IMG/VR virus record: IMGVR_UViG_3300045988_168943
Location: 1 to 6,194 of that record
Source of the DNA: a virus
Length of the DNA: 6,194 bases
Direction: 5' to 3' (one strand)
Shown: piece after piece, positions 2,509 through 6,194 of the stretch
Layout of the letters: every line of letters begins with the position of its first letter
Numbering within the stretch: the first letter of the stretch is position 1
The notes under the pieces: model-generated
What the model saw: the letters and a program-made list of their open reading frames with translations, nothing else
Database searches by the model: none
What the model was told of the DNA's origin: nothing
Position numbers and translations under genes: made by a program

Positions 2509-2537
2509 TATTTTTATTTTTTTTCCGTTATCATTTT

Positions 2538-2642
2538 ATGAGACACGGTTTATTATATTATTTAGTTTGTGCGATATTGATTATCTTTATCGTTATGTTT
2601 GTTTTATGTCTTTTAAGCTCATTTATTGCGGTTTACTTCTAG
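2538..2642 (+). CDS. Candidate 34-aa single-pass membrane peptide (MRHGLLYYLVCAILIIFIVMFVLCLLSSFIAVYF)
   Basis: Hand-translated; too short for the ORF track. It starts 29 nt after the VP2 stop and ends 6 nt before the intrinsic terminator, so it would be the last cistron of the transcript. Caveat: the T-rich strand generates hydrophobic ORFs by chance. Confidence 0.35.
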   Translation: MRHGLLYYLVCAILIIFIVMFVLCLLSSFIAVYF

Positions 2643-2648
2643 TTAATT

Positions 2649-2678
2649 AGGCAGTCATTTATATGGCTGCCTTTTTTT
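2649..2678 (+). terminator. Rho-independent terminator ending the + strand gene block
   Basis: AGGCAGTCA (2649-2657) pairs with TGGCTGCCT (2664-2672): a 9-bp stem with one G-U wobble and loop TTTATA. The stem runs straight into a T7 tract (2672-2678). Confidence 0.8.
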
Positions 2679-2682
2679 GCTT

Positions 2683-2977
2683 CGTGTCGGAGATGCCGTA
2701 GGCAGACACGCTTATTATCTCAAAGTCTTGCGCTAGCCCCTCCTATACCTATGAAAAACACTAGCCTTTGCTTCTTTGGGCAATGCCAAAGAAGTAGGGG
2801 TTGAGGGGGTGAAACCCCCTAACATTCGCCGTCGGCGTCCGACCTCCGAGGGGTTGTAGGGGGCGCGGAGTGGCGCCCCCTAATCGCTAGTTATCAACTT
2901 TCGGTTTTCACGAAGTGCGATTGCCCCCGCCAATCGCCAACCTGCCCTTGTCCTTTAAAGGAAAACCGACACACACG
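2683..2977. other. GC-rich, hairpin-dense non-coding island; candidate complementary-strand origin or other structured DNA/RNA element
   Basis: The track shows no ORF of 60 aa or more on either strand. My hand count over 2781-2940 gives about 59% G+C, against roughly 40% elsewhere. Stems read from the sequence: 2683-2688/2705-2710 with inner 2694-2697/2701-2704; 2771-2779/2786-2794 (9 bp perfect); 2805-2809/2815-2819; 2831-2835/2839-2843; 2857-2866/2873-2882 (10 bp, GC-rich); 2917-2923/2931-2937 (7 bp), enclosed by the long-range pair 2901-2909/2961-2969 (9 bp perfect). Confidence 0.6.
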
Positions 2978-3037
2978 TAAATAATGCTATCTCCACATAG
3001 CATTTCACGTGAAACATTTTAAAAGTAAACTAATATT

Positions 3038-3065
3038 TGTTAACATAACGTCCCTTATGTTAGAA
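3038..3065. promoter_or_regulatory. dif-like 28-bp site (11-nt arm, 6-nt spacer, 11-nt arm); candidate XerC/XerD-dependent attP
   Basis: The site reads TGTTAACATAA CGTCCC TTATGTTAGAA. The inner 8 nt of the arms form a perfect inverted repeat. Compared with E. coli dif (GGTGCGCATAA TGTATA TTATGTTAAAT), the right arm matches 9/11 and the left arm 7/11, including the spacer-proximal CATAA. Confidence 0.55.
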
Positions 3066-3082
3066 GTATGGTAGTACTTCAT

Positions 3083-3090
3083 TATCTTTG
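3083..3090 (+). promoter_or_regulatory. Candidate Bacteroidota -7 promoter element (TAnnTTTG)
   Basis: TATCTTTG matches the Bacteroides -7 consensus TAnnTTTG and lies 66 nt upstream of the first gene after the non-coding region (ATG 3156). I found no convincing -33 TTTG at the expected spacing. A sigma70-like TATAAT at 3121-3126 is an alternative. Confidence 0.3.
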
Positions 3091-3155
3091 CACTCGTTTT
3101 CAGTTACTTATTGTTTCTGATATAATTTATTGTTTAATTTTAATGTAAAAAAGAT

Positions 3156-3557
3156 ATGAGATTGTTATTGGTCAGAGATTCGTTTGATTCTTGTTCTACA
3201 TTGGGTGAGTTATTTATCGATGATGTCCCGTTCTGTAATACTCTAGAGCCTGCTATAGGTAAAAAGGTTAAATACGGCAAAGGTTGTTGTATTGCTCCTG
3301 GCACTTATTCTATTGATTTTCATTATTCTCCAAAGTTTGGAAAATACATGCTTACTTTGTGTGGTGTCTCTGGTCGTTCTGGAATTCTCATTCATTCTGG
3401 TAATACCCATAAAGATACTAGCGGTTGCATTCTTGTTGGTAAGCGTGGTGGTGTTCTTCCTTTGGCTTACTCTACTAGCACTTTAGGCTCACTGTTTGAC
3501 CGTTGCTTGTCTGTTCTAGGTAAAGAGTCAATTACTATTTCGATTACAAATAAATAA
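3156..3557 (+). CDS. DUF5675-like protein (133 aa) with a His...Ser-Gly-Cys motif; putative peptidoglycan-acting enzyme (lysis or entry)
   Basis: Clean ORF in an A-rich start context. STLGELFIDDVPFCNTLEP ... IAPGTYSIDFHYSPKFG ... GILIHSGNTHKDTSGCILVG matches my memory of the DUF5675 family found in Bacteroidota and their phages. The H-x-G-N ... S-G-C-I motif resembles the YkuD (L,D-transpeptidase fold) His/Cys active site, although the His-Cys spacing here is shorter. There is no signal peptide. Confidence 0.8.
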   Translation: MRLLLVRDSFDSCSTLGELFIDDVPFCNTLEPAIGKKVKYGKGCCIAPGTYSIDFHYSPKFGKYMLTLCGVSGRSGILIHSGNTHKDTSGCILVGKRGGVLPLAYSTSTLGSLFDRCLSVLGKESITISITNK

Positions 3558-3560
3558 GTT

Positions 3561-3656
3561 ATGTTTAAAAAAGAAGAAGTTTTTAAAGTTATTATTAAGG
3601 CAGTTCTTTACGCTATTACTGCGTTGGCTGCTCAACTGGGTTATACATCGTTATAA
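3561..3656 (+). CDS. Candidate 31-aa membrane or amphipathic peptide (MFKKEEVFKVIIKAVLYAITALAAQLGYTSL)
   Basis: Hand-translated; too short for the track. ATG lies 3 nt after the upstream stop, and its own stop is 11 nt before the VP4 ATG, so it fills the gap exactly. It has a charged N-terminus followed by a roughly 20-residue hydrophobic segment. Confidence 0.45.
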   Translation: MFKKEEVFKVIIKAVLYAITALAAQLGYTSL

Positions 3657-3667
3657 ATTTTGGGAAT

Positions 3668-5392
3668 ATGAGAGATAGTATTAAGGATTATGTTAAGCGT
3701 TTTAGGCAGAACGTTACACCTGCTATGCGTTGCTACCACCCATTGCGCATTTATAATGCTGCAAGAGGTGTATTTGAGTGGCATAATTGTGGTAAGTGTC
3801 CTTATTGTCTTAAGATGCGTTCTGACGAATTGACGCAAAGATGCTACAAGGAGTCTGAACAACATCCCTATGCTATCTTTTTTACTCTCACTTATGATAA
3901 TGAGCATATTCCCTATTTAGAGCGTGTTGGTAAATGGTGGATACTTCGTAACCGCAGAGAAGTAGTTGATGGTGAAAGTACTGTTATTATTCACGATTCT
4001 GAGGTACAAGGTGTACACCCTATAGAGTCTAATGAATGCCCCATTGATATCGATTGTTTCGGTGTCCTTTGGAAGCAGGACATTATTAATTTCAAGAAAC
4101 GTCTGTTTATAAATCTCAAAAGATATGTTCAGCGCAATAAAAAATATTATACAAGTTTATTCGTTAATGGTAAGCTTAAAGAAGAGCCGCTTTTCCGAAT
4201 CTTCATTAATGGCGAATATGGACCAACTACCCTGCGTCCACATTACCACGGCATTTTGTGGTGTGATGAAAAGTGTTTGGCAAACGATTTTCTTGATTCC
4301 TACAAGAATAGCGCAAAATCTGCCGATAGAGACTATTGGCACGGTCTTATATACGAAAGTTGGCAGATGTGTAGTCCGGATAGATGCGACTCACAACACG
4401 TCACAAAGGCTGCTCCCTCGTACGTTGCAAGCTATGTATGTAGCACATATAGTTTGCCTGATGTTCTTCAGGCTAAACCCTTCCGTCCAAAGGTCTTGGC
4501 AAGTAAAAACCCTATTATTGGTTCTTACAAAGTTAGCCCAGATGTGCTTACGGATGCACTCTTTAATGGAACTATCCTTTATCCTCAATGGAATGATGAC
4601 GAAAAGTCCTTTACCGAGTACCCTTTACCCTACACGTATCTCCTTCGATACTTCCCTAAGTGCCAAGCATATGGCGTTTCGGATATTAATGATAAATTAT
4701 CAATATTTGCGAAGTATGAAGCAGGAAGGTATGTAAAAAGACCAATTGTTAGACGTGGTTTTTTCTACCAAAAGAAACAAGACTTGGTTTGTTATGATTT
4801 CAATCAGGATTATGATGATACCCCTTACAACGATTATTATCGCTATCAAAATAGCCGATTTCATCGTATGTTGAAGTATTGGTGTTCTCGCTCCTTCGAT
4901 GTTCCTGAACGTGATAATTTAGGTATTCTTACAGGTCGTTTTGTGTCTCGTAGGTTGTCTCCTCGTCAATATATTGAGTGTCTTGATAGATTATATAGTA
5001 ATCTTGAGTTATACAAGTTGTCTAAGTTTTATGCCGAGCAGGAAGATTTGTTAGATGGCTCTCGTAATGCGTATAATGAGTATCTATTTACTCAACGCTA
5101 TCAGGCTAAAATTTATCTTCTCACTTATTACCCTGAGTTTGTTTTCTCTCTTCCTAGAGTGCTTACTCCTGCCGTTGATAGGTTTCAACTTAACAGACAG
5201 TTAAATAATTTTGGTCTTGTTATCTCAGATATTTACATTGGTCTTGAGTTGTCTCCTGCTGTTTTGGATTTCTTATATAATAACACTATTAATATGAATT
5301 TCCGTGTTAATACTACCCAGAAGTGTATTGACCGTAACAAGTCTAAAAAGTATAAAGAGTTTTATGCCCGACAAAAGGGTATTATTTATTAA
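3668..5392 (+). CDS. VP4: Rolling-circle replication initiation protein (VP4, phiX174 gpA homologue; HUH endonuclease), 574 aa
   Basis: Motif 1 is FFTLTYD. The HUH motif is RPHYHGILW (HYH at 4241-4249). The two-tyrosine motif 3 is SYVASYV (Y252 at 4421-4423 and Y256), comparable to phiX174 gpA YVAKYV. An N-terminal cysteine cluster, CGKCPYC, is typical of microvirus Rep proteins. The true start could instead be ATG 3725 (MRCYHPLRIYN...), which resembles the usual VP4 N-terminus. Confidence 0.93.
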   Translation: MRDSIKDYVKRFRQNVTPAMRCYHPLRIYNAARGVFEWHNCGKCPYCLKMRSDELTQRCYKESEQHPYAIFFTLTYDNEHIPYLERVGKWWILRNRREVVDGESTVIIHDSEVQGVHPIESNECPIDIDCFGVLWKQDIINFKKRLFINLKRYVQRNKKYYTSLFVNGKLKEEPLFRIFINGEYGPTTLRPHYHGILWCDEKCLANDFLDSYKNSAKSADRDYWHGLIYESWQMCSPDRCDSQHVTKAAPSYVASYVCSTYSLPDVLQAKPFRPKVLASKNPIIGSYKVSPDVLTDALFNGTILYPQWNDDEKSFTEYPLPYTYLLRYFPKCQAYGVSDINDKLSIFAKYEAGRYVKRPIVRRGFFYQKKQDLVCYDFNQDYDDTPYNDYYRYQNSRFHRMLKYWCSRSFDVPERDNLGILTGRFVSRRLSPRQYIECLDRLYSNLELYKLSKFYAEQEDLLDGSRNAYNEYLFTQRYQAKIYLLTYYPEFVFSLPRVLTPAVDRFQLNRQLNNFGLVISDIYIGLELSPAVLDFLYNNTINMNFRVNTTQKCIDRNKSKKYKEFYARQKGIIY

Positions 5393-5407: not shown

Positions 5408-6194
5408 ATGGTTAAGTCAGTTTTACAAAAACCGCTTTCGATTTCAAACGTATCTCGTAATGCGTTTGATGTAGGCTATAGTAACAAGTTTACTAGCAGT
5501 CTTGGTATGTTGTTGCCGTGTTTCGTTCGTGAGTGTAACCCTGATGAGCACTACCGCATTAATGCCCGTATGTTCACTCGTACAATGCCTATGAACTCGG
5601 CTGCGTTCATTCAGTGTACACAACATATTGAGTTCTTTTTTGTGCCTTATCGTCTCTTGTGGCGAGACTTCCCTCAGTTTGTGACGGGTACCAAGTTCCC
5701 TACTTCTCTGTATGATTCTAAGGTTTCTTCTGATTCTCCAAAGTTCGATTTGGCTAAGATTTATAACGCTTTCAAAGATAAGTTATCTGCTTCTAACCCT
5801 ACCCCTGCTGGTGGTCTTGGTACAGATTTGCTTGGTTATCCTAAGATACAGAATGCAATGCGTCTGCTTGATTTGCTCGGTTATGGTTGTTATTATACTC
5901 CAGAATCTATGGATTTCGCTCCTGCAGCTATGAATCCTTTTCGCTTGCTTGCTTATCAGAAGATTTGCGCCGATTTCTACCGTGTTGCGAATTGGGAAGA
6001 CAACCGTGTTAAGTCTTGGAATATTGATGGTCTTAATATAGACCTTACTTCTTCGTGGAATGCTGTAACGTTGCAGAATTTCTTGGATAATTATCTCGCA
6101 CTCAATTATCGTCCTTGGAAAAAAGATTTGTTTACCATTGCTAATACCCAATTTCAAGGTGCAGATTTCTTGAGTAATCATTTTGCTTCGCCCT
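5408..6194 (+). CDS. VP1: Major capsid protein VP1 (gpF homologue), N-terminal part; runs off the window end and continues at 1..1005
   Basis: I translated it by hand from ATG 5408 and found no stop through 6194. The protein begins MVKSVLQKPLSISNVSRNAFDVGYSNKFTSSLGMLLPCFVRECNPDEHYRINARMFTRTMPMNSAAFIQCTQHIEFFFVPYRLLW and later contains LNYRPWKKDLFT. These are characteristic microvirus capsid blocks (FTRT..P...AAF....FFFVPYRLLW, as in Alpavirinae-like VP1). The ORF track missed it because it has no stop inside the window. Confidence 0.93.
   Translation, partial: MVKSVLQKPLSISNVSRNAFDVGYSNKFTSSLGMLLPCFVRECNPDEHYRINARMFTRTMPMNSAAFIQCTQHIEFFFVPYRLLWRDFPQFVTGTKFPTSLYDSKVSSDSPKFDLAKIYNAFKDKLSASNPTPAGGLGTDLLGYPKIQNAMRLLDLLGYGCYYTPESMDFAPAAMNPFRLLAYQKICADFYRVANWEDNRVKSWNIDGLNIDLTSSWNAVTLQNFLDNYLALNYRPWKKDLFTIANTQFQGADFLSNHFASP
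6140..6194. repeat. Terminal direct repeat, copy 2 (identical to 1..55)
   Basis: Exact 55-nt identity with the window start, giving a circular unit length of 6139 nt. Confidence 0.95.

Follow-up and report, generated by a model that had tools for sequence, protein, structure and literature searches.

A DUF5675 protein with a YkuD-like His/Cys signature and an adjoining 31-residue membrane peptide form a candidate lysis pair in a microvirus of Segatella copri

The DUF5675 protein encoded by this small phage appears, with moderate confidence, to be a YkuD-like cysteine peptidase that serves as an endolysin together with a 31-residue membrane partner. This reading draws on family membership, residue conservation, remote similarity to YkuD proteins, a lysis-type context and selection on the peptide, each of which was observed or computed. 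The window (the whole stretch of DNA analyzed, 6194 bases) is a complete circular microvirus genome of 6139 nt with a 55-nt terminal overlap. All of its genes lie on the + strand. They are the major capsid protein gene (5408–6193 joined to 1–1005), a 141-residue acidic ORF between the capsid and pilot genes (1007–1432), a 340-residue ORF in the position of the DNA pilot gene, VP2 (1486–2508), the DUF5675 gene (3156–3557, 133 residues), whose product is a probable Cys/His peptidoglycan peptidase and candidate endolysin, the 31-residue ORF (3561–3656), a candidate holin-like partner, and the gene of the 574-residue replication initiator, Rep (3668–5392). A non-coding stretch of 647 nt (2509–3155) separates the pilot gene from the DUF5675 gene. 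A 9-nt tandem array (TGAGACTCC and variants) at 1354–1416 encodes the (ETP)n tail of the 141-residue acidic ORF.

Close relatives, with DUF5675 proteins 77–90% identical to that of the window, were found integrated in bacterial contigs of 42–46 kb. The gene order in these prophages is host alanine:cation symporter gene, DUF5675, 31-residue ORF, Rep, capsid, 141-residue ORF, pilot and host genes; counted from the left end of the prophage, the DUF5675 gene comes first. Proteins identical to the flanking symporter carry the names Segatella copri or Prevotella. The prophage relatives and the identity of the symporter indicate that the phage is a temperate, Alpavirinae-like microvirus of the gut bacterium Segatella copri. 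The phage encodes no integrase. When window positions 3000–3065 were compared with L005 and L007 around 7845–7900, the sequences of the circular phage and of the Segatella copri prophages were seen to lose their identity at ~3040–3050, just left of the conserved CATAACGTCCCTTATG.

The DUF5675 ORF runs from an ATG at 3156 to a TAA at 3555–3557. A preliminary description of this DNA had placed its product in DUF5675, and the HMM search bears this out: the Pfam model (PF18925) matches with an E-value of 3.5e-26 and 91.7 bits, far over the cut-off of 26.7, and PHROG 1501 (phrog_1501) matches with an E-value of 1.6e-20. No NCBIfam family was matched by the protein, and sequence searches of the PDB with the protein and with the family profile gave no match (best E-values 0.2–1, to unrelated proteins). 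The family is large. A word-indexed search of a 90%-clustered collection returned 1618 relatives, many of them on contigs of 6.1–6.4 kb, and an exhaustive search returned 5708 representatives of 50%-identity clusters at E ≤ 0.001. In the bajarodmic viruses (L111 1210–1365, L112 1215–1370), the DUF5675 domain carries an N-terminal extension of ~70–80 residues and is followed by a conserved, acidic, non-membrane peptide of 51 residues, with no membrane peptide at that place.

The window protein contains the motif I79-H80-S-G-N83-T-H-K-D-T88-S-G90-C91-I-L-V-G95, in which five residues (THKDT), rather than the six first counted, lie between IHSGN and SGC. The corresponding signature, I79-H80-x-G-N-x3-D-T88-x-G90-C91-I-L-V-G95, is encoded at 3390–3440 on the + strand, with the codons of the putative catalytic residues His80 and Cys91 at 3393–3395 and 3426–3428 of the same strand. 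In an alignment of diverse relatives (about 35–60% identity), the histidine is present in 145 of 145 sequences and the cysteine in 144 of 145, so the pair singled out in the preliminary description is indeed conserved among homologues; Gly82, Asn83, Thr88, Gly90, Glu31, Gly49, Tyr51 and Ser58 are also invariant or near-invariant in these 145 sequences. The window protein has the full family signature IHxGNxxxDTxGCILVG, plus R7, G17, C27-x-T-L-E31, G49-x-Y51 and S58, and the signature residues are 90–100% conserved in 135–145 relatives. Across these alignments, the His...(S/T)-x-Gly-Cys signature is the invariant core of DUF5675. The AlphaFold model of the window protein has a mean pLDDT of 96.2. 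The region of residues 2–10 is charged (R2, R7, D8, D11) and forms the first core strand of the model, in agreement with the absence of a signal peptide noted earlier. A 64-residue, extremely hydrophobic ORF in the +1 frame of the DUF5675 gene (3292–3486) was also considered. Its stop positions vary among close relatives, and such open frames arise automatically because the third codon positions are T-rich; the ORF is probably not a gene here.

The similarity of DUF5675 to YkuD-type enzymes is remote at the level of single sequences. The window protein gave no match to the YkuD HMM (Pfam PF03734) at E ≤ 1, and no family member passed the Pfam threshold for YkuD (best 18.9 bits, cut-off 23.4) or for Tlde1 (PF10908; best 18.7 bits, cut-off 30.1), all scores of members against the two models being ≤19 bits. 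Nevertheless, when 135 aligned members were compared with Pfam, 35 gave weak matches to Tlde1_dom (best E-value 6.6e-4) and 12 to YkuD (best E-value 2.4e-3), and no other Pfam family was matched by more than three. The match of one member (P0181) covers positions 31–134 of the 146 positions of the YkuD profile.

For a profile comparison, YkuD-domain proteins were collected from Bacteroidales and other genomes. One subgroup of secreted proteins of ~250 residues matches the NCBIfam model LdtF_DpaA_YafK (E-value 1.9e-37, under the equivalog cut-off), and also matches PDB entry 8IKR, Pgp2 and Csd6. The hhalign comparison of the DUF5675 alignment with this YafK/DpaA-like subgroup gave a P-value of 3.5e-4 over 62 columns, with a probability of only 37%. 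The aligned blocks occur in the same order in both families, namely F-C-x-T-L-E/F-C-..-L-G-P, I-P-x-G-x-Y/P-E-G-x-Y, I-x-I-H/I-F-I-H and T-x-G-C-I/T-I-G-C-I (DUF5675/YkuD), and the alignment puts His80 and T88-S-G-C91 on the catalytic histidine and the TxGC of the YkuD proteins, with a similar result from a second hhalign comparison. The score of 31.6 tops all 120 shuffles; column shuffles scored 12.7 ± 2.3, and all 60 block shuffles that kept the motifs and scrambled their order scored lower (19.6 ± 3.6, maximum 28.6). The short spacing between histidine and cysteine had been raised as a concern, which is eased by the Pfam-validated YkuD proteins: their His–Cys distance is 8 in the YafK/DpaA type and ~19 in canonical L,D-transpeptidases, a range that includes the value of 11 in the window protein. 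The second residue after the cysteine is canonically an arginine and is a leucine in the window protein; residues other than arginine are found here in the YafK-like set as well. Moreover, secondary-structure elements succeed one another in the same order in the AlphaFold model of the window protein and in that of a YafK-like protein (three strands, two strands, a strand with the histidine, a strand after the cysteine, a helix and a strand).

The structure searches were less favorable. A Foldseek search of the PDB, which includes structures of YkuD, Csd6, Pgp2 and Tlde1a, with the pLDDT-96 model found nothing similar (best E-value 0.1, TM below 0.25) and no peptidoglycan-acting structure. Against BFVD, only DUF5675 proteins were recovered, plus a marginal match named 'Lysin' (E-value 0.065), and a reverse search of viral structures with the YafK-like model did not recover DUF5675 proteins. 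Of the YkuD-like resemblance proposed in the preliminary description, the part that concerns the catalytic pair is upheld by the profile alignment, whereas the expected likeness to YkuD/Ldt structures did not emerge from the PDB. That Foldseek finds no solved homologue would suit a non-enzymatic or unrelated function, in which the cysteine and histidine bind metal or have a structural role and the resemblance to YkuD is convergent. A public microvirus protein with 74% identity (P0091, DAJ22713.1) bears the name 'barstar', which might be read in the same way, but no DUF5675 member matches the barstar model and the name looks like an annotation error. The alignment of several motif blocks in order with YkuD, beyond what shuffles produce, and the fusion of DUF5675 domains to wall-degrading and wall-binding modules (see below) argue for an enzyme, and we consider a non-enzymatic role improbable. 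On balance, the mixed evidence from sequences and models is positive for a YkuD relationship. It largely supports the placement of DUF5675 in the YkuD (MEROPS C82) superfamily of L,D-transpeptidases and carboxypeptidases, as a remote branch with a predicted fold link. Within these comparisons, the hydrolytic YafK/DpaA, Csd6 and Pgp2 type would be nearest.

The YafK/DpaA (LdtF) amidase and the L,D-carboxypeptidases Csd6 and Pgp2 (PDB codes 8IKR, 4XZZ and 6XJ6) share with the window protein a histidine that precedes the cysteine, an (S/T)-x-G-C-hydrophobic motif and a PxGxY strand. They differ from it in being secreted and larger, with extra helical regions, and in the His–Cys distance (8 in the YafK-like set, 11 in the window protein). 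Another point of comparison is Tlde1a of Salmonella (PDB code 7UMA), a type VI effector of the L,D-transpeptidase fold that kills bacteria via stem peptides (PMC9638812). Like the DUF5675 protein, it stands alone and has no signal peptide. The Tlde1 motif is H-x14-17-(S/T)HGC-hydrophobic and is accompanied by a capping subdomain (PMC9638812); the window protein has H-x10-C, a serine instead of a histidine before G-C, and a shorter domain. The routes to the wall differ as well, since Tlde1a is delivered by type VI secretion whereas the window enzyme would act from within the cell.

The 31-residue ORF (3561–3656; MFKKEEVFKVIIKAVLYAITALAAQLGYTSL) starts three bases (GTT) after the stop codon of the DUF5675 gene, as the preliminary description had stated for a small hydrophobic ORF, and ends 11 nt before Rep. 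Its product begins with a charged N-terminus and continues into a single membrane-helix-like stretch of ~20 mostly hydrophobic residues that is interrupted by two lysines, with a Kyte-Doolittle maximum of ~1.8 over 19 residues. Six relatives have the ORF at the same position and with the same length. Its changes are mostly synonymous, with a pN/pS that is ~0–0.2 for 13 of the 15 pairs and never above 0.45. Therefore, the 31-residue ORF is a real gene, and it is under purifying selection. The peptide matches DUF6486 only weakly (E-value 0.004, under the cut-off). It resembles a 32-residue ORF of another microvirus and the N-terminus of a 71-residue ORF in Dulem virus 260 (L003 4039–4254). The latter ORF overlaps the DUF5675 stop codon (ATGA) and encodes a signal-like N-terminus and then an LTSC lipobox-like motif. 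Compared with it, the 31-residue peptide looks like a signal-anchor segment that ends just before the lipobox cysteine, and it may be a truncated small lipoprotein. As in a holin–endolysin system, a predicted wall enzyme without a signal peptide is encoded beside a small membrane-type protein, and the peptide is a candidate for the part of the holin. To our knowledge, it is shorter than any known holin, which, like the two lysines in its hydrophobic stretch, counts against that part.

The neighborhoods of DUF5675 genes elsewhere are consistent with a role in lysis. Homologues in crAss-like phages are 33–41% identical over the whole length and are annotated as 'L,D-carboxypeptidase/transpeptidase'; those of crAss001 (gp30) and cr85_1 directly follow genes named 'lysis regulatory protein' and 'lysis regulatory protein/holin'. 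In a contig from Bacteroidales, an Rz-like spanin gene is located directly downstream of the DUF5675 gene (phrog_739, E-value 3.3e-6), and the neighbors at other DUF5675 loci are two-helix membrane proteins of 52–84 residues or lipoprotein-like ORFs. Two papers on Vibrio phages list a DUF5675 protein beside a protein with transmembrane helices. An abutting small membrane-type ORF is present in 29 of 38 non-redundant viral DUF5675 loci, against 27% of 179 other genes from the same loci, a rough control as the loci are not independent. Additionally, DUF5675 domains are fused to recognizable lysis modules: a 521-residue protein (P0149) combines DUF5675 with SH3_3 and Phage_lysozyme, a 508-residue protein (P0123) combines it with SH3_3, and a 325-residue protein (P0182) has a weak Glyco_hydro_19 match, under the Pfam cut-off, in addition to DUF5675. 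By their domain matches, these fusions have a modular, endolysin-like architecture. The lysis role suggested in the preliminary description fits both the holin and spanin neighbors and the SH3 and lysozyme fusions.

The crAss-like proteins offer the closest parallel to the window protein. They belong to the same Pfam family and have the same predicted fold in BFVD (E-value 5.7e-10, TM 0.85), their hosts are Bacteroidales, and crAss001 gp30 is part of a lysis module with small membrane proteins. The arrangement differs: in crAss001, two or three genes of the holin or lysis-regulator type precede the enzyme gene, in a dsDNA genome of 100 kb, whereas in the window the enzyme gene comes before that of a single 31-residue peptide, in a 6.1-kb ssDNA genome. 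Among microviruses, acquired M15 peptidases have been proposed as endolysins (Roux et al. 2012, PMC3394797). The M15_3 genes of Gokushovirinae and Alpavirinae resemble the present case as horizontally acquired wall peptidases that often lie beside a small ORF of unknown function; their products are zinc metallopeptidases, unrelated to DUF5675 in fold and family.

Two other ways in which a peptidoglycan enzyme could be used have to be weighed against this context. One is that the protein acts in the cytoplasm as an enzymatic amurin, trimming precursors or recycling intermediates (for example, at the diamino acid–D-Ala bond of UDP-MurNAc-peptides) and starving cross-linking, such that cells would lyse during growth, as with phiX174 E. 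The lack of a signal peptide is compatible with this, as are the existence of small cytoplasmic YkuD-type L,D-carboxypeptidases (the NCBIfam model ElsL was weakly matched by a YkuD control protein) and the precedent of single-gene lysis by inhibition of wall synthesis in microviruses (Roux et al. 2012, PMC3394797). Moreover, some microvirus DUF5675 genes have no adjoining membrane ORF. However, the fusions to SH3 wall-binding and lysozyme domains, and the holin and spanin neighbors in tailed phages, point to the assembled wall as the substrate, and in this phage the membrane peptide is tightly coupled to the enzyme and conserved. We consider action on precursors unlikely.

The second is that the enzyme is packaged or bound to the capsid and opens the wall locally for DNA delivery. 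DUF5675 domains do occur inside proteins of 868 to 1251 residues in jumbo and other tailed phages (such as Ralstonia phage RP31), which could be virion or ejection proteins. In the window, however, the gene is not part of the VP1/VP2 structural block and sits beside Rep and the membrane peptide, and the endolysin-type fusions and holin neighbors fit release better than entry. We know of no T=1 microvirus capsid that carries a 15-kDa globular enzyme. The 'entry factor' considered in the preliminary description thus finds little support in a microvirus, and we judge it very unlikely.

The DUF5675 gene directly follows the 647-nt non-coding region. At 3083–3090 on the + strand, 66 nt upstream of the start codon, TATCTTTG matches the Bacteroidota-type -7 element TAnnTTTG. 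This pattern is not significant alone (8 in the window, 7 expected), but the element and the enclosing block TTATCTTTGCACTCGTTTTCAGTTACTTA are kept in all six relatives compared, two of them prophages, and it is a putative promoter. A sigma-70-like promoter at 3097–3126 was rejected, being no more than expected by chance and having a -10 hexamer (TATAAT, 3121–3126) that is not conserved in relatives. The preliminary description had made the DUF5675 gene the first after a candidate promoter; its place as the first gene after the non-coding region stands, and the sigma-70-like site does not. After the pilot gene, a terminator-like hairpin (2649–2672) with a T-run (2649–2682, + strand) is suggested by its position only, with one found and one expected by chance. 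Such a hairpin would end the preceding transcription unit, and the DUF5675 gene would then be the first cistron of the next; plausibly, it is the first cistron of the phage operon. This place in the operon would be harmless for a cytoplasmic enzyme awaiting a membrane lesion. The non-coding region also contains a GC-rich, hairpin-rich island (2683–2977). Rfam and tRNA scans of the window gave only a sub-threshold match to Clostridiales-2 (2788–2864; 24.6 bits against 58.6).

The conserved promoter-like block, and the location of the gene directly after the host symporter gene in the Segatella copri prophages, could also be accommodated by a gene for lysogenic conversion, which would be expressed in lysogens from its own promoter and would remodel stem peptides or exclude other phages without causing lysis. 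Three points make this hard to sustain: as long as the cell is intact, its wall is out of reach for an enzyme without a signal peptide; the gene order and the promoter are those of the entire phage operon, Rep and the capsid gene among its members; and lytic crAss-like phages have DUF5675 in the context of a lysis module. A conversion gene is, in our estimate, a very improbable explanation.

From the evidence for an endolysin with a membrane partner, we infer as follows how the enzyme works, which bond it cuts, what the peptide does and how the two would bring about lysis. His80 would activate Cys91, which would attack the peptide bond at the L-centre of the stem diamino acid. Water would resolve the acyl-enzyme, such that a stem or cross-link would be cut and not joined. 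In the absence of a signal peptide, the enzyme would build up in the cytoplasm until the translationally adjacent 31-residue membrane peptide lets it through to the wall, as in a holin–endolysin pair; the Segatella copri host would then burst and release the microvirus progeny. One caveat to this endolysin reading is that L,D-carboxypeptidase activity alone would leave cross-links intact.

A more far-reaching version can be offered only tentatively. It holds that Bacteroidota microviruses may lyse their hosts by a miniature two-gene cassette, consisting of a 133-residue minimal YkuD-like cysteine hydrolase and a 31-residue lipoprotein-signal-like peptide that lacks the lipobox cysteine, rather than by a phiX174-type amurin. 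The peptide would then be the smallest holin-like release factor described, and the enzyme would be the first endolysin of the YkuD superfamily whose bond specificity is defined; it might be an L,D-endopeptidase acting on the donor side of 4-3 cross-links.

Annotations, a supplementary table and a preprint already predict a cell-wall or lysis role for DUF5675, and the concept is not new. Supplementary file 3 of Kirchberger et al. 2022 (mBio, PMC9239249) contains a 'DUF5675 / transpeptidase' cluster with 17 members in families 5, 8 and 12, and a cluster of a 31-residue hypothetical protein in the same three families; the members of the former are DUF5675 proteins encoded by microviruses, as is the window protein. 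The main text of that paper mentions peptidase and amidase lysis genes in general, and does not discuss the function, partner or mechanism of DUF5675. The accessible part of a 2026 preprint (bioRxiv 10.64898/2026.04.11.717860) uses structure to place a DUF5675 protein among C82 peptidases and puts forward a 'C82-like' lysin domain; activity of the protein is not reported in that part. No experiment on any member of the DUF5675 family was found in the portion of the literature that was accessible, and a literature search for experiments on crAss001 gp30 and for microvirus transpeptidases returned nothing relevant.

Behind this gene pair is the unsettled question of host lysis in microviruses other than phiX174. 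The phage is a tractable test case, with a gut host (Segatella copri), natural lysogens, a two-gene module of 133 and 31 codons, and clear predicted catalytic residues; its value is as a test system rather than as a new concept. If the proposed reading is true, it would provide a function for a family of thousands of proteins, including the predicted lysis enzyme of crAss-like phages, and endolysins would gain a new catalytic class.
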